Part shown: positions 1,048-14,295 of the stretch, piece by piece
How the letters are laid out: each line of letters starts with the position of its first letter
Numbering within the stretch: position 1 is the stretch's first letter
Virus record (IMG/VR): IMGVR_UViG_2562617113_000013
Strand: one strand, 5' to 3'
Origin: a virus
Lineage: Duplodnaviria; Heunggongvirae; Uroviricota; Caudoviricetes
Length of the DNA: 22,448 nt
Position numbers and translations under genes: made by a program
Notes under the pieces: generated by a model
What the model saw: only the letters and a program-made list of their open reading frames with translations
Database searches by the model: none
What the model was told of the DNA's origin: nothing

Positions 1048-1649
1048 GGATTCACTCTCATTGTGTCAATAACATGGACCGCCCCGCCTTCATGCGCGGT
1101 GCCGCCAGAAATAATTGTTTCGTTGATATACGGATAGATCGTGATTTCTTCGCCAAGATAGCTGGCGGCCCCCACCCAATGCGGACCGCTGGTCTGCAGA
1201 TTGATGGACATGCCGATCATGTGACGGCTACATGGTTTGGCATCGCTTATCAGCCGCTCAAGTTCCAGATAGGTATCTTCAGTGATGCCCTGGTCCTGCA
1301 CGCCGATATCCAGGCGAAACGTGCCCGGTGTTTCTCCGGTCTGCCACCACTCAATAATGCGGATCAGGAATCCGAACGGTTCCACCACCCGCCGCACGGC
1401 ACTGGTGGTTCCTTTATGCTGATGAATATAAAAAGCATCCTTCACTACCTGGCGTTTGACGCTTTCTGTCCAGCCCTCGTCCCAGCGATCCACAGAGAAC
1501 GCCCAGGCGAGATAAGGCAGGAAGCTGACCGGACAGGTAGCCGGATTCCACAAGTCACGCAGCGGCACCTGCAGATCAGAAATCCCGCTACAGGTTTGCG
1601 CCAGTCGGCGCTCCAGTGGTGTTGAACCCGGTGGCAGCAGACTATTCAT
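1044..1649 (-). CDS. I: Baseplate/tail fibre assembly protein gpI
   Basis: 201 aa ORF starting MNSLLPPGSTPLERRLAQ, typical gpI family; position between J and H as in the P2 late operon. Confidence 0.85.
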   Translation of the reverse strand: MNSLLPPGSTPLERRLAQTCSGISDLQVPLRDLWNPATCPVSFLPYLAWAFSVDRWDEGWTESVKRQVVKDAFYIHQHKGTTSAVRRVVEPFGFLIRIIEWWQTGETPGTFRLDIGVQDQGITEDTYLELERLISDAKPCSRHMIGMSINLQTSGPHWVGAASYLGEEITIYPYINETIISGGTAHEGGAVHVIDTMRVNP

Positions 1650-2550
1650 CCGTTCCTCCGTTGGTTACGCTCCACTGCGTACATGATGCCGCCTGTGTTT
1701 TGTTCAGGACCACATCCGCCAGCGGCGAAGCCAGCTCCACACGCTGCACACCCTCAACATGCAGGGCGGCAAAGATGGCGCTACGGCGAATATCCCGACC
1801 AAGACGCGTCTGACTGGCGATGTACTTCTGCAGGCTGGCTTTTGCCGCTGCCATTACCGGCTCTGCTTCCGGTCCCGGATAGAGAAAAATGGTGGCTTCC
1901 ACGCGATACGGGATGATTTCTGCGCTGCGAACCGTCAGACGGTCAGCCACCGGGCGGACGTTCTCACTGTTCAGGGCTTTCTCCACCACATCCAGCAAGT
2001 CTTTTTCTGCTGTTCCATCGCCTTCGCGGCTCAGGACAGTCAGCACCACCTCTGCAGGTGCCGGACTGGTTGCACTGGCATCCGCCACCCGACCGTCGGC
2101 GCTTTGGGCATGAAATTCATAAGCTGCAGTTGGCCCCGCAACTGAAAGTCCTTCAAATGCTGCAGGCACACGCAGGCGTAACGCTTCATCGCTTTCCATC
2201 ACAGCCGCAACGGGCGGCACAGCGTCATTATCAGCAGGCGTCACCGTCAGGCGTGTCACGTTGTAGTTGGCAGCGAGCTGGTCCAGATCGCCGCCCATCG
2301 CGTAAGCCACCATCACCGCCTGCGCGGCTTCGTTAATGCGCTGGCGCAGAAGCAACTCACGGTAAGTATTCTCCTGCAGCAATTTGGTGACGGGTTCAGA
2401 TTCCAGTTCCAGGGTACGCATCACAGCCTCCTGTTCATCTTTCGGATGAAGCGCCACAAATTCTGCCTTGCGTGCGGCAAGCAGCGTCTCAAAGTCCGGC
2501 ACATCCACAATCTGCGGCGCAGGCAACTGCGAAAGGTCAATCACTGCCAT
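1642..2550 (-). CDS. J: Baseplate wedge protein gpJ
   Basis: ORF 1642..2589; start preferred at internal Met (MAVIDLSQLPAPQIVDVPDFETLL) at 2550, which has an AGGAG RBS 6 nt upstream and reduces the overlap with W to 14 nt. gpJ-like sequence and position. Confidence 0.85.
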   Translation of the reverse strand: MAVIDLSQLPAPQIVDVPDFETLLAARKAEFVALHPKDEQEAVMRTLELESEPVTKLLQENTYRELLLRQRINEAAQAVMVAYAMGGDLDQLAANYNVTRLTVTPADNDAVPPVAAVMESDEALRLRVPAAFEGLSVAGPTAAYEFHAQSADGRVADASATSPAPAEVVLTVLSREGDGTAEKDLLDVVEKALNSENVRPVADRLTVRSAEIIPYRVEATIFLYPGPEAEPVMAAAKASLQKYIASQTRLGRDIRRSAIFAALHVEGVQRVELASPLADVVLNKTQAASCTQWSVTNGGTDE

Positions 2551-5824: not shown

Positions 5825-6020
5825 AGTCCTCCCGCGAGATCTGCCCGTCGCGCAGAAGCTGGTAGGCTTTGTGTTTGTAGTACCAGTTGATAGCCAGCAT
5901 CAGCACACCGATCATCAGGCCGCCCAGCGTTGAGGCATCCTTGATGGACAAATCGCCCAGCCAGGCCAGCACGACGGCGATGCAATACGTGATAAAGGCG
6001 CTGATTCGCTCAAGCGTCAT
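5805..6020 (-). CDS. Y: Putative holin
   Basis: 71 aa, two hydrophobic helices and charged C-terminus, immediately upstream of the endolysin as in the P2 X-Y-K order. Confidence 0.55.
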   Translation of the reverse strand: MTLERISAFITYCIAVVLAWLGDLSIKDASTLGGLMIGVLMLAINWYYKHKAYQLLRDGQISREDYESINR

Positions 6021-6023
6021 AAT

Positions 6024-6227
6024 TCAGTCCCATAGCTGGACGGTCTGCACGGTGGTGGTTGTCGGAATGTCCGGCAGCTCCACCTGCAGCCCGTGAGGTA
6101 AAAAGGGGCCGTATTCGGCAAGCCCCGGATTTGCCTTCAGTACCTGCTCCGTGACACCCTGCGTGCGCCCGTAATGACGCCAGCAAAGTGCGTCCACCGT
6201 GTCATACTGATGCGCACGCACTTTCAT
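6024..6227 (-). CDS. X: Tail protein X
   Basis: 67 aa, same size as P2 gpX, conserved position between L and Y. Confidence 0.75.
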   Translation of the reverse strand: MKVRAHQYDTVDALCWRHYGRTQGVTEQVLKANPGLAEYGPFLPHGLQVELPDIPTTTTVQTVQLWD

Positions 6228-6754
6228 CAGATAAGCTCCACTGTGCAGTGCGGCGCATCCTGCACCCGGCTGATGGCCCAGCGGGCGTCACGCCATAAAT
6301 CACCGCTTGCTTCCGCCAGTTCCTCGCCTCGCTTCGCACCGGATGCCGTGGCGTCATAGTCCTGGTAACGTTCGTTGAGCATGGCGCGTGCCCAGCAGTA
6401 AACCGCGTTGAAATAGTGCTGAATGCGCTCGCTTTTGCCGTCCAGTTGTTCCGCCGGGACTTCTGCCAGCGAGGCATACCCCAGCATCTGCTGGCGTCTG
6501 CGAAACTCATACAGCTCTGCGTTGACCTCCGAAATTGCCGACAGGGCAACCTGTTTTAAACGCGGCTGCGTCACCGTGCCGTCAGTGCGCATCACACTGC
6601 GAAACTCCGACAGGTCCACATCAGGCCAGAACGGCGTATTCCTGATGATTTCCGCCTGTTCCGGTGCCTGTTCTGGCGCAACAAACTTCATGCTGCTTTC
6701 TCCTGAAATAGAGGGCGGTGGACGGGGTTTTGATGTGGCAGTGCCTTTCGCCAC
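6227..6754 (-). CDS. L: Head completion/stabilisation protein gpL
   Basis: 175 aa; NAELYEFRRRQ and FWPDVDL regions resemble gpL; position after M. Confidence 0.8.
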   Translation of the reverse strand: MAKGTATSKPRPPPSISGESSMKFVAPEQAPEQAEIIRNTPFWPDVDLSEFRSVMRTDGTVTQPRLKQVALSAISEVNAELYEFRRRQQMLGYASLAEVPAEQLDGKSERIQHYFNAVYCWARAMLNERYQDYDATASGAKRGEELAEASGDLWRDARWAISRVQDAPHCTVELI

Positions 6755-6786
6755 CCCGTGCCGCCCGTGCGCGGGGGCACGTTCTG

Positions 6787-7437
6787 TCAGCGGCTGTCAT
6801 TGCGCAGTCTGCGCTCCAGCTGCTGTTTGTCTTTTTTCACGCCACAGCGGGGATCGAGCTGTAACGCATGGTTGAGATGATTAAGGGCAGACGCCGGATT
6901 TCTTTCACTCAGGACAGCGCCAATCGCTTTATGCAGACGCGCCCGTGACTGGTCCGGCATATCCATACCGTCTGTCAGCTCCAGGGTCTGCAGCAACAGA
7001 TCAGCATCAAAGCCGGTGGCGGCAAGCATTGCGCTCTGGGCTGCATCTGCCATTTCCTCTGCCAGCACGGTCTGCACGTTGCGGTTACCTAACGGCATCA
7101 CCCAGCCATGACGCAGGGCGTGACGCCCGATCTCCAGCGCCCCGGCATAATCTCCGGCATCAATGCGCCACAGCATCACGTACATCAGCACGTCATCCTG
7201 TTGAGCGCCTCCGGCAGCCAGGACACCCTCCGCCCAGGCGGCGTACTTCGGCAGCAGCTCCACCTTGATTTCCGCTTTTTTGACCGTGGACTGAACGCCC
7301 TTGAGACGGCGGCGGTCTTCCGCCAGTTGCAGCAGCATCAGGTCATAGCCCGACGCGTGGCGAACGCTGCCGCCCTCGCGGGCGGCCTGTTCAGCCTGAA
7401 CGCGCAGGCGATGCTGCCGTGCGGGACTCAGGCTCAT
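6787..7437 (-). CDS. M: Terminase endonuclease (small) subunit gpM
   Basis: 216 aa, position between N and L; gpM-like. Confidence 0.8.
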   Translation of the reverse strand: MSLSPARQHRLRVQAEQAAREGGSVRHASGYDLMLLQLAEDRRRLKGVQSTVKKAEIKVELLPKYAAWAEGVLAAGGAQQDDVLMYVMLWRIDAGDYAGALEIGRHALRHGWVMPLGNRNVQTVLAEEMADAAQSAMLAATGFDADLLLQTLELTDGMDMPDQSRARLHKAIGAVLSERNPASALNHLNHALQLDPRCGVKKDKQQLERRLRNDSR

Positions 7438-7440
7438 GAA

Positions 7441-8499
7441 TTACGCTCCGGTTTCTGCTGCTGCGGCGCTGAAGTCGCCAATCTGGATGTTTTCCACCAG
7501 TGCGGCGCAGCGGTAGTCCTCAACCACATAGGCTTCGTTAACGGATTCAAAGTTTTCAATCCGGTCACGTTTCGGGTTGTCGATAACTGAGCGGCGGCGG
7601 GTGTCTTCCTGCCAGTAGATGGACAGGTTATCCAGACGGGTGATCAGCAGCGCATTCGGCGGGAAGAACGGCGCACGCACGGCCTGCAGGCCACCCATGC
7701 GTTTCTGACTGATGATCATATCGGCAGCCAGTTTTTCACTGTTTTCCTGCTCTTTGTTGACCAGCGGGAAATACTTGTCAGACAGCAGTTCACGACCGCA
7801 AATCACCACCAGATCGTCATCGTCCTGGTAGACCACATCGATAAGCTCATTGACGGCATCCATCACCACGGCGTCCAGGTTGGCATATTCGCCACCTTTC
7901 CCGACTTTCACCGCACCCGGTGTGGTTTCACCGCCCGTGGTGGTGCTGCCCATGACGTGATCCGGTGCATCTTCACGGATTTTCTGCAGCCAGCCTTTGT
8001 TCACATCCTGCAGCAGCGGGTTTTCGCTACGGTTGGAGGTTTTCGCACGCTTCACGCCGTTAAAGCCGATCATGATGCGGTCCAGAGCCTGACGTTTCAC
8101 GATGGCGTCACGGATGCGCACCTGGAAATCCTGAAACTTCGCCCACAGGTCCAGCTTCGCGTAGGTCAGCACCGTGTCAAAGTTGGTCTGCTCGCATTTA
8201 TATTCCACATCGACCATCAGCGTCGGATCGACAGGTTCACGCTCTTTCGCGGTGGTGTCAGTGGTTCCGGCAATGGTGCTGCCAACTCCCAGCCCCAGCA
8301 GCTGACCGGACTGCTCAGTCACTGGCGTGACGTTAATCAGCGTCAGGAAAGCGGCGGACTGCTGGATCTGGTCTTCCAGCGTCTGCTGCACAGACGGCTC
8401 CACAGTGAACTTGCTGGACAGTTCTTCAACTGCCACACCGTTCAGACGTGCCAGTTGCTGCAGGTAAGCGTTAAAAGCAAAGCGGGTATTCTTCTTCAT
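7441..8499 (-). CDS. N: Major capsid protein gpN
   Basis: 352 aa (P2 gpN about 357 aa), downstream of scaffold gene. Confidence 0.85.
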   Translation of the reverse strand: MKKNTRFAFNAYLQQLARLNGVAVEELSSKFTVEPSVQQTLEDQIQQSAAFLTLINVTPVTEQSGQLLGLGVGSTIAGTTDTTAKEREPVDPTLMVDVEYKCEQTNFDTVLTYAKLDLWAKFQDFQVRIRDAIVKRQALDRIMIGFNGVKRAKTSNRSENPLLQDVNKGWLQKIREDAPDHVMGSTTTGGETTPGAVKVGKGGEYANLDAVVMDAVNELIDVVYQDDDDLVVICGRELLSDKYFPLVNKEQENSEKLAADMIISQKRMGGLQAVRAPFFPPNALLITRLDNLSIYWQEDTRRRSVIDNPKRDRIENFESVNEAYVVEDYRCAALVENIQIGDFSAAAAETGA

Positions 8500-9349: not shown

Positions 9350-9491
9350 GAGCCGTGCTCCGTTAGAAAAAACTTACTGGAGCCTTATGGTTGCGGTGAT
9401 GGGGGCAGTGAAACAATGCGCGGTATTTGTACCGACAACCACACAAACCGCAGGCGGGGAAAGCCTTCATTCAAGGCTGTAGGTTTGTGCC
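9350..9491. promoter_or_regulatory. Divergent late promoter region (O leftward, P rightward)
   Basis: 142-bp intergenic region between divergently oriented O and P. Contains TGT-N12-ACA at 9428..9445 (TGTaccgacaaccacACA), the dyad type bound by Ogr/B/Delta-class zinc-finger late activators. Confidence 0.5.
9428..9445. promoter_or_regulatory. Candidate late-activator (Ogr/B-type) binding site, TGT-N12-ACA
   Basis: Exact TGT-N12-ACA dyad. Centre is about 55 bp from a plausible O transcript start (leader about 30 nt) and about 55 bp upstream of the P start codon. Confidence 0.45.
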
Positions 9492-11258
9492 ATGAACACC
9501 ACACTGACACCCGCAGATCTCGATCCCCGTCGGCAGGCCATGCTGCTGTACTTTCAGGGATACCGCGTCGCCCGCATTGCTGAAATGCTGGGCGAGAAAG
9601 TTGCAACCGTTCACAGCTGGAAAAAACGCGACAAGTGGGGTGACTACGGGCCGCTGGATCAGATGCAGCTCACCACCGCCGCACGTTACTGCCAGCTCAT
9701 TATGAAGGAGCACAAAGAAGGGAAAGATTTCAAAGAAATTGATCTGCTGGCGCGCCAGTCGGAGCGCCACGCGCGGATCGGCAAGTTTAACAATGGCGGC
9801 AACGAAGCCGACTTAAACCCTAACGTCGCCAACCGTAACAAAGGCCCGCGCCGTCAGCCGGAAAAGAATGTTTTCACCGATGAGCAGATTGAGAAGCTGG
9901 AAGAAATCTTCCATTCCTCCATGTTCAACTACCAGCGCCACTGGTGGGAAGCCGGAAAAACCAACCGCATCCGCAACCTGCTGAAGTCACGCCAGATCGG
10001 CGCGACCTTTTATTTTGCCCGTGAAGCCCTGATTGACGCCCTGCTTACCGGACGTAACCAGATTTTCCTTTCCGCCAGCAAGGCACAGGCCCACGTCTTT
10101 AAGCAGTACATCATCGACTTCGCCAAAGAAGTGGAGGTGGAGTTGAAAGGCGATCCGATGGTGCTTCCTAACGGGGCCACGCTTTACTTCCTCGGCACCA
10201 ATGCCCGCACGGCCCAGAGTTATCACGGCAACCTGTATCTGGATGAATATTTCTGGATACCGAAATTCCAGGAGCTGCGCAAAGTGGCTTCCGGTATGGC
10301 TATTCACAAAAAATGGCGACAAACCTATTTTTCCACGCCATCCAGCCTGACACACAGTGCTTATCCGTTCTGGTCCGGTGCGCTGTTCAACCGTGGGCGC
10401 AACAAGGCCGACAAGGTGGACATCGACCTGTCCCACAGCAATCTGGCCCCCGGCCTGCTGTGCGCAGACGGGCAATACCGCCAGATAGTCACCGTGGAAG
10501 ATGCGGTGCGCGGCGGCTGTAACCTGTTCGACCTTGACCAGTTGCGCATGGAGTACAGCCCGGACGAATACCAGAACCTGCTGATGTGCGAGTTTGTGGA
10601 CGATCTCGCGTCCGTGTTCCCGCTCAGCGAGCTGCAGGCGTGCATGGTGGACAGCTGGGAAGTCTGGACCGACTTTCATGCACTGGCTCTGCGCCCGTTT
10701 GGCTGGCGCGAAGTGTGGATCGGTTATGATCCGGCAAAAGGTACGCAGAACGGCGACAGTGCCGGATGCGTGGTGGTGGCACCGCCAGCCGTGCCGGGTG
10801 GTAAGTTCCGCATTCTTGAGCGTCACCAGTGGCGCGGGATGGACTTCCGCGCCCAGGCTGACGCCATCAAAAAACTGACCGAGCAATACAACGTGACCTA
10901 CATCGGCATCGACTCGACAGGTGTCGGCCACGGGGTTTACGAGAACGTGAAAGCGTTTTTTCCAGCCGTCCGGGAGTTTGTCTACAACCCCAACGTTAAA
11001 AACGCCCTGGTACTCAAGGCCTACGACATTATCAGTCACCGTCGTCTGGAGTTTGACGCCGGACACACCGACATAGCGCAGTCATTTATGGCAATCCGTC
11101 GCGCCACCACCGCCAGTGGCAACCGCCCGACCTATGAAGCCAGCCGCAGCGAAGAAGCCAGCCACGCCGATCTGGCCTGGGCAACAATGCACGCACTGTT
11201 TAACGAACCGCTGCAGGGCGAATCCGCCAATACCAGCAATATTGTGGAGATTTTTTGA
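9492..11258 (+). CDS. P: Terminase ATPase (large) subunit gpP
   Basis: 588 aa; N-terminal HTH-like region, deviant Walker A KSRQIGAT, Walker-B-like LYLDEYFWIP, C-terminal nuclease-like region; P2 gpP-like size. Confidence 0.9.
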   Translation: MNTTLTPADLDPRRQAMLLYFQGYRVARIAEMLGEKVATVHSWKKRDKWGDYGPLDQMQLTTAARYCQLIMKEHKEGKDFKEIDLLARQSERHARIGKFNNGGNEADLNPNVANRNKGPRRQPEKNVFTDEQIEKLEEIFHSSMFNYQRHWWEAGKTNRIRNLLKSRQIGATFYFAREALIDALLTGRNQIFLSASKAQAHVFKQYIIDFAKEVEVELKGDPMVLPNGATLYFLGTNARTAQSYHGNLYLDEYFWIPKFQELRKVASGMAIHKKWRQTYFSTPSSLTHSAYPFWSGALFNRGRNKADKVDIDLSHSNLAPGLLCADGQYRQIVTVEDAVRGGCNLFDLDQLRMEYSPDEYQNLLMCEFVDDLASVFPLSELQACMVDSWEVWTDFHALALRPFGWREVWIGYDPAKGTQNGDSAGCVVVAPPAVPGGKFRILERHQWRGMDFRAQADAIKKLTEQYNVTYIGIDSTGVGHGVYENVKAFFPAVREFVYNPNVKNALVLKAYDIISHRRLEFDAGHTDIAQSFMAIRRATTASGNRPTYEASRSEEASHADLAWATMHALFNEPLQGESANTSNIVEIF

Positions 11259-11965
11259 TGCCCCCAATCCCAACTAACCTCATGACTATCGCGGGACTTC
11301 CGGTGGATAGCTCTTTCTTTGCTTACCAGTATGAGTGGAACACTGGCCCAAAGAGTAGAAACCGTGTACTCACAAAAATGCGCCAGGCAGGCGCGGATTT
11401 CTTTTTTTCCTATGAAGCCCTGAACGATGCACTGCATACCGGGCGTAACCAGATTTTCCTCTGCTGCAACACAGCATCTGCGCAGGTAATCAAAGCCTAT
11501 GTGTCAGCATTCTTAAGCCAGCCCGCAGCTTATACGCACACTGGGAAAATAAAATCAGGCAAAAGTCATCTGGAGCTTCCGAATGGTGCAGTAATTTATT
11601 TTACCGACCTCAGAAGTCTCTCCGCCGCACTCAGTGGAAATGTCTACGTGTCAGAGTATGCCTGGGCTGAATCACCGAGAAATATGATTACCCTCGCTAA
11701 AGGGATTTCTATGCACGCACACCACTACGCCACCTACTACACCACTCCCAGCCCTAACCCGGAGGCATGGCAGGAATATAAAAAGCTAAGCAGAAACAAA
11801 AGTGTAACCAGCATGGTGTTCACCGCAGATGACGCAGCAGCATCAGGAGCAATGTTGTTTACTGATAACTGGCTGAACGATATGAAAAAAGAATTATCAT
11901 CAGAGGACTGGAAAATGCTGTTTATGTGCGAATGGCCTCTCGCTAACGAGGAGCTGGCAGAATGA
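11258..11965 (+). CDS. Terminase-ATPase-domain paralog (truncated, diverged copy of the P ATPase core)
   Basis: ORF track 11255..11965 uses a TTG; the first ATG is at 11258 and overlaps the P stop. Its stop overlaps the Q start (ATGA). Aligns by eye to P residues ~150-375: FFFSYEALNDALHTGRNQIFL vs FYFAREALIDALLTGRNQIFL, LPNGAVIYF vs LPNGATLYF, VYVSEYAW vs LYLDEYFW, YYTTPS vs YFSTPS, LFMCEW vs LLMCEF. Confidence 0.6.
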   Translation: MPPIPTNLMTIAGLPVDSSFFAYQYEWNTGPKSRNRVLTKMRQAGADFFFSYEALNDALHTGRNQIFLCCNTASAQVIKAYVSAFLSQPAAYTHTGKIKSGKSHLELPNGAVIYFTDLRSLSAALSGNVYVSEYAWAESPRNMITLAKGISMHAHHYATYYTTPSPNPEAWQEYKKLSRNKSVTSMVFTADDAAASGAMLFTDNWLNDMKKELSSEDWKMLFMCEWPLANEELAE

Positions 11966-13048: not shown

Positions 13049-13081
13049 CGCCCCAGCAGCATTCTGCGGGGCGTTTTTTTT
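13049..13081 (+). terminator. Rho-independent terminator downstream of Q
   Basis: GC stem cgcccc(a)gcag / ctgcggggcg with 4-nt loop, followed by a run of 8 T. Confidence 0.75.
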
Positions 13082-13170: not shown

Positions 13171-13189
13171 CTCGTATCCCCGCCACGCC
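13171..13189. other. Candidate cos cohesive-end core
   Basis: Reverse complement reads GGCGTGGCGGGGATACGAG, resembling (from memory) the G/C-rich 19-nt cohesive end of P2/186-type phages (GGCG-A/T-GGCGGGGAAAGCA-). Correct position between Q and the right-arm genes. Confidence 0.45.
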
Positions 13190-13258: not shown

Positions 13259-13395
13259 CTCAGCTAAAACGATCCTCAAACGATCATGCGGATTCATGCG
13301 GCATAGTCATGCAGCACAATTCCTTTGCCCCACTATATCCTTTGTGGCAGAAATTGAGGAAAATGATTCATAAATACTCATATTTCGGAGGATAT

Positions 13396-14295
13396 ATGGC
13401 AGTTCTATTTTTATTTGGCGCAGGTGCGAGTTTTGGCAGCGGTCCATGTAGTCCATCCAATCCACCTCTTGGTAAAGATCTGCTTATCCGCATGCGTGAA
13501 AAAGGTGGAGTTGCTTCAACTATTGATGGCGCTCTATTGGAGAGTTTCATTGCAGATCCTGAACAAGGAATGATTAATTTTTTCAATGAACGAAATTGCG
13601 AGACAACTCACCTCCTAAAGCAGATGTGCGCCTATCTTGCACAATTTCGGGTCGAGAAAGGAAACACCTACATAAAACTGTTTAACCTATTAAAAAAAAG
13701 AAAAAACATATGTATGGCAACAACTAATTACGACCTATTAATTGAACAAGCTATATGCTCTGTTGGCTGTCTTGTTCAATATCACTCATCGAAGCGCAAT
13801 AGAAATAACATACCGGTATTAAAAATACATGGCTCAGTAAACTTCATACCAGTTGCAAATATCGTTAATATCGATTTCGAATTACCTGATTGCGAGAACT
13901 CTGCAATATTCGATGGTTCAATTGATATTTACAACGATGAGCAAGACGTGATTGCATACTGCGAAAGTGATTCTGCCCTCTCACCCGCAGTTGCATTATA
14001 TCATCCCAAAAAAAGCGTATTGCACTGCCCCTCATTTGTTAAGTATCAGCAGGAAGAGTTTCGTTCTGAGGTTGAACGTTCATCCAAGATATTCATTATT
14101 GGACTTAAAATAAATCCAAATGATGAGCATATTTGGTCTGAAATTGAAAAAACTTCAGCCGACGTCTACATAGTAGACAAGGATAAAGAATCTACTATCA
14201 CCTGGGTTAATAGCTTGAGCAAAAAGAACATTTACCACATAGCTGATACTTTTGATGAATCGATTGTGAGAATTAAAAACATTCTGCAATTATAG
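13396..14295 (+). CDS. SIR2-like (sirtuin-fold) protein; candidate NAD+-consuming anti-phage effector
   Basis: ORF track 13309..14295; start preferred at ATG 13396 (GGAGG RBS 4-5 nt upstream), giving 299 aa beginning MAVLFLFGAGASFGSG. Carries the SIR2-family motif series GAGAS ... TTNYDLLIE ... KIHGS ... KIFIIGLKINPND. Visibly A/T-rich compared with flanking phage genes. Confidence 0.65.
   Translation: MAVLFLFGAGASFGSGPCSPSNPPLGKDLLIRMREKGGVASTIDGALLESFIADPEQGMINFFNERNCETTHLLKQMCAYLAQFRVEKGNTYIKLFNLLKKRKNICMATTNYDLLIEQAICSVGCLVQYHSSKRNRNNIPVLKIHGSVNFIPVANIVNIDFELPDCENSAIFDGSIDIYNDEQDVIAYCESDSALSPAVALYHPKKSVLHCPSFVKYQQEEFRSEVERSSKIFIIGLKINPNDEHIWSEIEKTSADVYIVDKDKESTITWVNSLSKKNIYHIADTFDESIVRIKNILQL

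Follow-up and report, generated by a model that had tools for sequence, protein, structure and literature searches.

The window analysed here, a whole stretch of 22,448 nucleotides (IMG/VR virus record IMGVR_UViG_2562617113_000013), is a P2/186-like prophage and is 100% identical to NZ_CP028738 (E. coli strain A38). Between its terminase gene P (gpP) and its portal gene Q lies an extra open reading frame (ORF), labelled X in the following, which encodes a stand-alone terminase ATPase domain. X is a divergent member of the gene W family of phage 186, a kind of gene that has been annotated since the records of phages 186 and PSP3. Features of the locus are collected in Table 1.

X is linked to both neighbours by overlapping codons. 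In the sequence TGATG at 11256-11260 the stop codon of P and the ATG of X share one base, with a GGAG 8 nucleotides upstream of the ATG, and in ATGA at 11962-11965 the stop codon of X overlaps the ATG of Q; the reading frame of X is -1 relative to P. A preliminary description of this DNA had reported an extra ORF coupled on both sides, which stands, with a start at ATG 11258 and 235 rather than 236 amino acids (aa). The program-made ORF list gives X as 11255..11965 (+) from a TTG, which is almost certainly an artefact of the ORF rule. P itself comprises helix-turn-helix (HTH)/Terminase_5, Terminase_6N ATPase and Terminase_6C nuclease domains (Pfam). Since a dyad lies 5' of P, and a hairpin with eight T residues as well as cos lie 3' of Q, the observed anatomy is that of a single late operon, in which translationally coupled expression of P, X and Q is to be expected. 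The dyad has the form of the Ogr/B late-activator site and probably acts as such here, judging by its annotated counterparts: late-activator sites are annotated at the equivalent place in P2 and 186 (the pO/pV versus pP/p12 gaps). The position of the terminator matches tQ of P2 and tW of 186.

Table 1. Features of the P-X-Q locus and sequence motifs of X, in coordinates of the window.
Feature	Position	Strand	Basis or detail
TGT-N12-ACA dyad between the divergent genes O and P	9428..9445	.	pattern search
P, terminase large (ATPase) subunit, 588 aa	9492..11258	+	Pfam; RefSeq WP_001098431.1
Coupling junction P/X	11246..11260	+	GGAG 11246-11249; P stop TGA 11256-11258; X ATG 11258-11260
X, stand-alone terminase ATPase domain, 186-W family, 235 aa	11258..11965	+	BLASTP, Pfam, PHROGs, AF2, Foldseek
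Q (adenine-binding) motif of X, Y23-Q24	11324..11329	+	P counterpart Y147-Q148; Q24 invariant in A1 and A2
Walker A-like P-loop of X, K40-M-R-Q-A-G-A-D47	11375..11398	+	P = KSRQIGAT; Thr -> Asp
Walker B-like strand of X, G127-N-V-Y-V-S132-E133	11636..11656	+	Walker B Asp -> Ser; catalytic Glu retained
Motif III / coupling motif of X, T159-Y-Y-T-T-P-S165	11732..11752	+	P = TYFSTPS; alignment
Q, portal protein, 349 aa	11962..13011	+	Pfam Phage_portal
Intrinsic terminator after Q, closing the P-X-Q operon	13049..13081	+	hairpin of -20 kcal/mol, then T8
cos core	13178..13189	-	reverse complement of GGCGTGGCGGGG, first 12 bases of the 186 cohesive end

Alignment of X with the P protein of the same window displays 32% identity over 237 columns (BLASTP, E 1e-30) and covers residues 142-368 of P only. 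The sole Pfam match of X is Terminase_6N (PF03237; 6e-17, 62 bits against a cut-off of 22), and among the PHROGs it corresponds to phrog_3746 (1e-85); NCBIfam holds no model for it. There is no Terminase_6C match, and the chain ends about 10 residues past the ATPase lid. An AlphaFold2 (AF2) model computed with 25 homologues (pLDDT 80.9, pTM 0.81) finds its best PDB folds in the TerL ATPase domains of P74-26, T4, HK97, D6E and Sf6 (Foldseek, probability 1.00), with the Avs3-bound PhiV-1 terminase also among the best matches, and fold comparison with BFVD agrees. A search of the X family profile against PDB sequences gave nothing at E <= 0.01, the relation being visible by fold comparison only. 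By profile match and predicted fold X has the ASCE P-loop ATPase fold (PF03237); two hallmarks of a functional TerL, a fused RNaseH-like nuclease and the pair of Walker A Ser/Thr and Walker B Asp as Mg ligands, are missing from it. The similarity to the gpP ATPase core, previously drawn by eye, is thus significant, and the HTH and nuclease domains are absent, as had been described.

Compared with gpP (a T4 gp17-type ATPase of homologous fold), X keeps 29 positions that are invariant in P, among them the P-loop Lys/Arg/Gln/Gly, the catalytic Glu, motif III and the Q-motif. X lacks the N-terminal HTH/Terminase_5 region and the RNaseH-like nuclease, and its Mg-ligand residues are swapped; the replacements of KSRQIGAT by KMRQAGAD and of LYLDEY by VYVSEY, as first noticed, are exact. 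The surface motifs SASKAQAHVF and GTNxxTAQS, invariant in P, are unconserved in X. In the AF2 model residues 128-132 form a strand. Q24 is present in 145 of 147 stand-alone homologues, and motif III has invariant T159 and S165 and nearly invariant T162 and P164.

In P2 itself, P and Q are adjacent with no gene between them, in line with the canonical map invoked earlier. An insertion without precedent, as that comparison had implied, is refuted by phages 186 and PSP3, which carry a homologue at this very position. The 186 record U32222 holds a 248-codon CDS (1215..1961) between Orf12, the P homologue, and Orf2, the portal; it is named "W protein; similar to Orf12" and its junctions overlap at 1961/1961 and 1215-1218, as for X. 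The ORF of PSP3 at the same place is annotated "similar to 186 W". Like X, 186 W (AAC34147 / NP_052250) lies between the P homologue and the portal with stop/start overlaps on both sides and consists of the ATPase domain alone (about 250 aa), without HTH or nuclease domains. It shows 33% identity with X (BLASTP, E 2e-35) and 37% with 186 Orf12, and differs from X by canonical KSRQIGAT and YLDEF motifs and by an insertion of about 25 residues that X lacks. Further genes of the 186 type are PSP3 orf2 and those of Erwinia phage EtG and Salmonella phages SW9, SI22 and BIS20. The X subfamily is marked by KxRQxGAD, YVSEY and TGRNQ, the last of which reads TGDNH, TGDNQ or TGNNQ in the 186 clade.

A neighbour-joining tree of 199 aligned columns separates 20 extra ORFs from 13 P cores (including those of HP2, Vibrio, Pseudomonas and Burkholderia phages) in 100% of 300 bootstraps, although long-branch attraction may contribute. 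The same clade of extra ORFs appears in a tree of 117 sequences, and two one-residue deletions relative to P are common to its members. We read the extra ORFs as the probable outcome of one old duplication of the ATPase domain (P residues about 125-375); in the larger tree, some short copies of Vibrio-type phages seem to have a separate origin. X shares with the 186 W family the position with its double overlap, the ATPase-only product of about 225-255 aa and the grouping with 186 W. It departs from 186 W in its Walker motifs, where GAD and SE take the place of the canonical residues, a difference that marks a separate subfamily and is compatible with common descent. The second "GpP" of the Yersinia enterocolitica phages vB_YenM_201.16 and 56.17 (P0086-P0088) resembles X in position, in KSRQIGAD and in the loss of the Walker B Asp (YLGEY), and differs in the Gly at that position, in a retained 186-type insertion and in its 254 aa; it looks like an intermediate form, with a weakly supported place in the tree (42%). 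A possible analogue is T4 vs.8 (Evans et al. 2026, PMC13601566), likewise a stand-alone phage protein of unknown role beside a real terminase, homologous to the T4 terminase ATPase domain; it comes from another phage family and another genomic setting, and its Walker A and B motifs are reported to be conserved.

A search of 5.8 billion proteins yielded 57 X-type clusters of 225-241 aa from Escherichia, Salmonella, Citrobacter, Klebsiella, Leclercia, Phytobacter, Pantoea, Yersinia and Buttiauxella. Every context examined, namely Yersinia, Buttiauxella, Pantoea and two metagenomic contigs, shows the gene flanked by P and the portal and overlapping both in the same manner, and in the three named genera the P/X junction again combines GGAG with a stop/start overlap (TGATG or TAATG). 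A Hafnia locus holds a family gene at the same position with the same overlaps. Across 25 X-type sequences with identities down to 35%, 33 columns are invariant and centred on the nucleotide pocket: Q24; K40, R42, G45, A46 and D47; G127, Y130, S132 and E133; T159 and S165 are the pocket residues among them. The invariance of D47 and S132 argues that the changes from Thr to Asp and from Asp to Ser are fixed features, not decay. The 186-type W forms about 30 clusters (Enterobacter, Edwardsiella, Hafnia, Pectobacterium) with canonical KSRQIGAT and Y[LVI]DEF.

About 45 further stand-alone clusters came from a profile search of 1.84 billion representatives, and the whole set was aligned to a single profile. 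Of the 147 stand-alone clusters, 82 have Asp as the last Walker A residue, and none of these 82 has the Walker B Asp (Ser in 70, Gly in 5, Pro in 4, Ala in 2, Leu in 1), against 59 with this residue among the 65 clusters that lack the Walker A Asp. The 71 full-length TerL are canonical without exception, combining Thr or Ser in Walker A with Asp in Walker B. A Fisher test gives p 1e-34, which overstates independence as shared ancestry is uncorrected; the pattern itself is absolute. The simplest reading would be a charge-conserving exchange of the two Mg-holding positions, which suggests that the site of X may still bind Mg-nucleotide, and the pocket looks like a remodelled yet selected nucleotide/Mg site rather than a decayed one. 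The statement that X is "probably catalytically dead" is therefore not established: the two changes are invariant and joint, and the P-loop Lys/Arg/Gly, catalytic Glu, motif III and Q-motif are kept. From the sequence, catalytic death is neither shown nor excluded.

In the wider family the P-loop Lys is lost in 8 of 147 clusters, and the catalytic Glu likewise in 8 of 147. One member between P and the portal (P0109; L028 3685-4395) reads ASRQIGCD and VPNY and has neither residue; another at the same position (P0207; L029 1419-2237) reads EARQIGAT and VQDF. PSP3 W (L018 3001-3747) has YLDDF where 186 W has YLDEF, so that in this viable phage isolate Asp replaces the catalytic Glu, either as a genuine variant or through an error in sequencing. 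In view of the losses of Lys and Glu, as in P0109, and of the Asp in PSP3, hydrolysis may not be what the family is selected for, and it may be dispensable for the role of W and X. Two stand-alone paralogues lie elsewhere in the genomes of P2-like phages. P0173 (L026 4001-4669), with degenerate AARQIGVT and LLDNY motifs, is found between lysis genes and gpR, and P0194 (L030 4001-4750), with KARQIGAD and YLSEW, directly follows gpA and overlaps its end; in the latter phage, P and portal are adjacent.

Carriage was counted in 5426 complete E. coli genomes. P of the window type is found in 1231 genomes (1279 places) and P2-type P in 1642 (1928 places), while X occurs in 21 genomes (22 places) and 186-type W in 8 (8 places), which amounts to about 1% of E. 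coli P2-like prophages. The prophage L023 (strain 21AR0133) encodes an identical P (WP_001098431.1) with the portal directly next at the same GGAGATTTTTTGATG junction and no X; hence X behaves as a precise cassette, and P is independent of it. X is an accessory gene, not a core one. Of the earlier concern that it might be a universal, already characterised core gene, universality does not hold, and the kind of gene is already annotated as 186 W. Phages with X are viable, since the isolated Yersinia phage vB_YpM_MLG42 carries it. Comparison of portal proteins between X-positive and X-negative phages displayed no X-specific feature.

These counts bear on the notion, prompted by the lettered name W, that the terminase holoenzyme of phages with X or W depends on this protein as its second ATPase. 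U32222 does name the 186 ORF "W protein", and the Walker A and B motifs of 186-type W are canonical. Work by Hocking and Egan in 1982 is said to have derived the lettered 186 genes from conditional-lethal mutants with a head-defective phenotype. However, about 99% of E. coli P2-like prophages, and P2 itself, do without X or W, and the identical P protein is found without X. As the portal gene is coupled to W, an amber allele of W would have a polar effect on it, and the phenotype described classically could stem from missing portal protein; moreover, U32222 carries /gene=W on both CDSs, and PSP3 W has Asp for the catalytic Glu. Essentiality thus appears rather improbable.

The base composition of X sets it apart from its neighbours, as had been noted: G+C is 0.480 (0.517 at third codon positions, GC3) in X, 0.567 (0.705) in P and 0.514 (0.583) in Q. 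Pairwise dN/dS values (Nei-Gojobori) for X are 0.2-0.3 at informative divergence and reach 0.6 in the closest pair, which differs by few changes; the corresponding values are 0.01-0.10 for P and 0.05-0.14 for Q. Purifying selection acts on X, though far less strictly than on P and Q. Between the window and FORC_081 the P proteins are identical, X shares 89% and Q 88% identity, so the three genes have different histories. Intact frames and the junction ATG are found in all 6 E. coli or phage alleles and all 3 distant alleles checked. The dN/dS comparison proposed at the outset thus gives purifying selection (0.2-0.6), and the frameshifts or stops that would betray a pseudogene are absent from these 9 alleles, whereas one RefSeq record (L003, Escherichia phage 500465-1) is annotated as truncated. 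In that record the X homologue spans 6003-6533 and the portal is split in two CDSs (6722-7760), an annotation that points to frameshifts caused by assembly errors or to a degraded prophage.

With intact frame, coupling and purifying selection, the earlier view that X is not a decaying recombination scar is borne out. A related thought is that X is a functionless duplicate kept open only because translation of the portal needs a coupled upstream ORF. The tight stop/start overlaps on both sides, the weaker constraint on X than on its neighbours (with dN/dS as high as 0.6 for the closest pair) and the low G+C would fit such a spacer. The dN/dS of 0.2-0.3 at informative divergences, the 33 pocket-centred invariant residues down to 35% identity, the length conserved over 57 clusters and the strictly kept residue swap do not. 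In addition, junctions without X exist, so precise loss is possible and a mere spacer should be gone everywhere. We regard the spacer as most improbable.

Based on this dataset, we tentatively hypothesize that X assists the gpP motor, either as a nucleotide-binding auxiliary subunit or as a modulator, a reading that we consider well possible, if somewhat short of probable. X would be a late product of the P operon, translated in coupling with P and Q, and such late expression alongside these two genes points to the packaging step. It would still bind nucleotide, with altered or no hydrolysis possible, and, without being essential, would assist the packaging motor as an added subunit or modulate it, through contacts between ATPase domains. 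It could, for example, tune terminase assembly or activity before or at the portal, and it would not serve as a second motor. X lacks the N-terminal HTH, which would tie it to the small subunit or to DNA, and the nuclease part; its pocket is kept, while the surface motifs of P vary.

Several points weigh against this hypothesis. A contact between X and gpP is suggested by homology, position and conservation only. X and W subtypes are combined with both major P clades, which gives no sign of tight co-evolution with P, and co-evolution of X with P is accordingly unsupported. Relatives after gpA and between lysis genes and gpR imply that the role of the family need not tie to P and Q. In protein sequence X has diverged about five times as much as P, the homologous gene is poorer in G+C than the neighbours in 11 of 11 loci, and fast evolution with low G+C is a pattern that fits accessory or conflict genes better than parts of a machine. 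Terminase motors are homomeric ring ATPases; an ATPase-only subunit entering the motor is expected to poison the ring, which makes stoichiometric co-expression puzzling. T4 gp17 is not known to tolerate single substitutions at these Walker residues, and X may thus not hydrolyse ATP. To our knowledge, an ATPase-only paralogue made together with motor and portal figures in no current packaging model, and the role of 186 W seems never to have been worked out. A literature search, with Portelli et al. (1998) and Hocking and Egan (1982) outside its scope, found no accessible paper discussing 186 W, Orf12 or a second terminase gene.

The host immune sensors Avs2 and Upx recognise the terminase ATPase domain and this very site, which makes the family an obvious candidate for a phage look-alike in conflict with the host: X might shield the phage from, or bind, host sensors of the ATPase domain (Avs1-3, Upx), its altered Mg site preventing productive recognition or their activation. 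EcAvs2 and Upx recognise the ATPase domain alone, and the bridging ATP of Avs2 touches the gamma-phosphate on the ATP that the terminase has bound and the Mg hydration shell (PMC13601566), a part of the site that is altered in X. The Avs3-bound PhiV-1 terminase is one of the fold matches of X, and the gene is fast-evolving, patchy and low in G+C. On the other hand, the stand-alone look-alikes T4 vs.8 and Ksap1/2 activate Avs2 and do not block it (PMC13601566), so that an extra ATPase domain is more likely a liability. The motifs of 186-type W are fully canonical, and no anti-defence annotation was found for X. Such counter-defence therefore strikes us as rather improbable. X as a member of a known defence system was rejected, as PADLOC-DB v2 returned no defence family at E <= 0.01 for X, P0194 or P0173.

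Conflict might equally be with other mobile elements, X being a dominant-negative mimic that poisons the motors of rival P2-like phages or limits P4-type satellites that borrow terminase. A relative of X sits right after gpA, beside the cos-proximal defence hotspot (L030; PMC9122126), a precedent exists in TerI, a prophage protein that blocks rival packaging via the rival's terminase (bioRxiv 10.1101/2025.02.27.640495), and catalytic residues are lost in many family members. Yet X is located in the phage's own late P-Q operon, coupled to its own P and Q, and would be made only during its own packaging; its own P is identical to that of phages without X, and no self-immunity is visible. Phage 186, which carries W, presumably still acts as a P4 helper, which also counts against interference. 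We consider this weapon quite improbable. A joint version would apply to the Asp-for-Thr/Ser-for-Asp subfamily, which might be a nucleotide-binding pseudo-ATPase with a re-wired metal site that acts in phage-host or phage-phage conflict and not in its own motor; X would then blunt terminase-sensing receptors (Avs2/Avs3/Upx) or hamper rival packaging motors. We judge the joint version unlikely as well.

X is hence a known kind of gene (186 W) in a sharply defined new variant, real and conserved, without categorical novelty. New here are the breadth of the family (about 150 clusters, mostly from P2-like phages of Enterobacterales), its dispensable and fast-evolving nature, and its two forms, one canonical and one in which the Mg residues are swapped in strict co-variation; this swap represents a natural experiment in the re-wiring of a P-loop site. 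If a role in conflict were true, the ATPase domain would have given rise, through repeated and independent duplication at three places in Peduoviridae genomes, to a hitherto unrecognised class of terminase-mimic accessory genes. If the preferred modulator reading applies and X is a mild packaging helper, it would be an ordinary accessory gene with an interesting active site.

Two further candidates at the locus were rejected. Fusion of P and X by a -1 frameshift at the T6 run at 11250-11258 (ATTTTTTGA) was ruled out because the run is unconserved in relatives, which read ATTTTCTGA, ATATATTGA, TTCAACTAA and ATGTATTAA at this position. A GC-rich hairpin with T-run at 11379-11405 (+), resembling a terminator internal to X, was dismissed as chance: its sequence consists of P-loop codons (MRQAGADFFFS), synonymous substitutions abolish it in relatives, and the total of the terminator scan is not above that of shuffled controls. 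As to annotation, PGAP begins X homologues of some genomes at internal codons (L019 3049, L022 3027) despite a junction ATG and full-length frame, and annotated lengths of the X family are therefore inconsistent across RefSeq.

Just past cos, in the cos-proximal hotspot between portal and gpA, lies a low-G+C gene (13309-14295, +; 328 aa; G+C 0.377, GC3 0.35), annotated by RefSeq as a shorter hypothetical protein. Its product has weak SIR2-like matches (Pfam SIR2_2 6e-5, below the cut-off; PADLOC SIR2 1e-5), and it is probably defence cargo. The cos-proximal slot 3' of the portal holds different cargo in each prophage (L003, L006, L019, L020, L021, L023): a TIR-domain protein, SocA_Panacea, a DEAD/DEAH helicase, DarT with a macro domain, an AAA ATPase, and HIRAN with HipA. 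This variety among related prophages agrees with the cos-proximal defence hotspot of P2 reported by Rousset et al. 2022 (PMC9122126).

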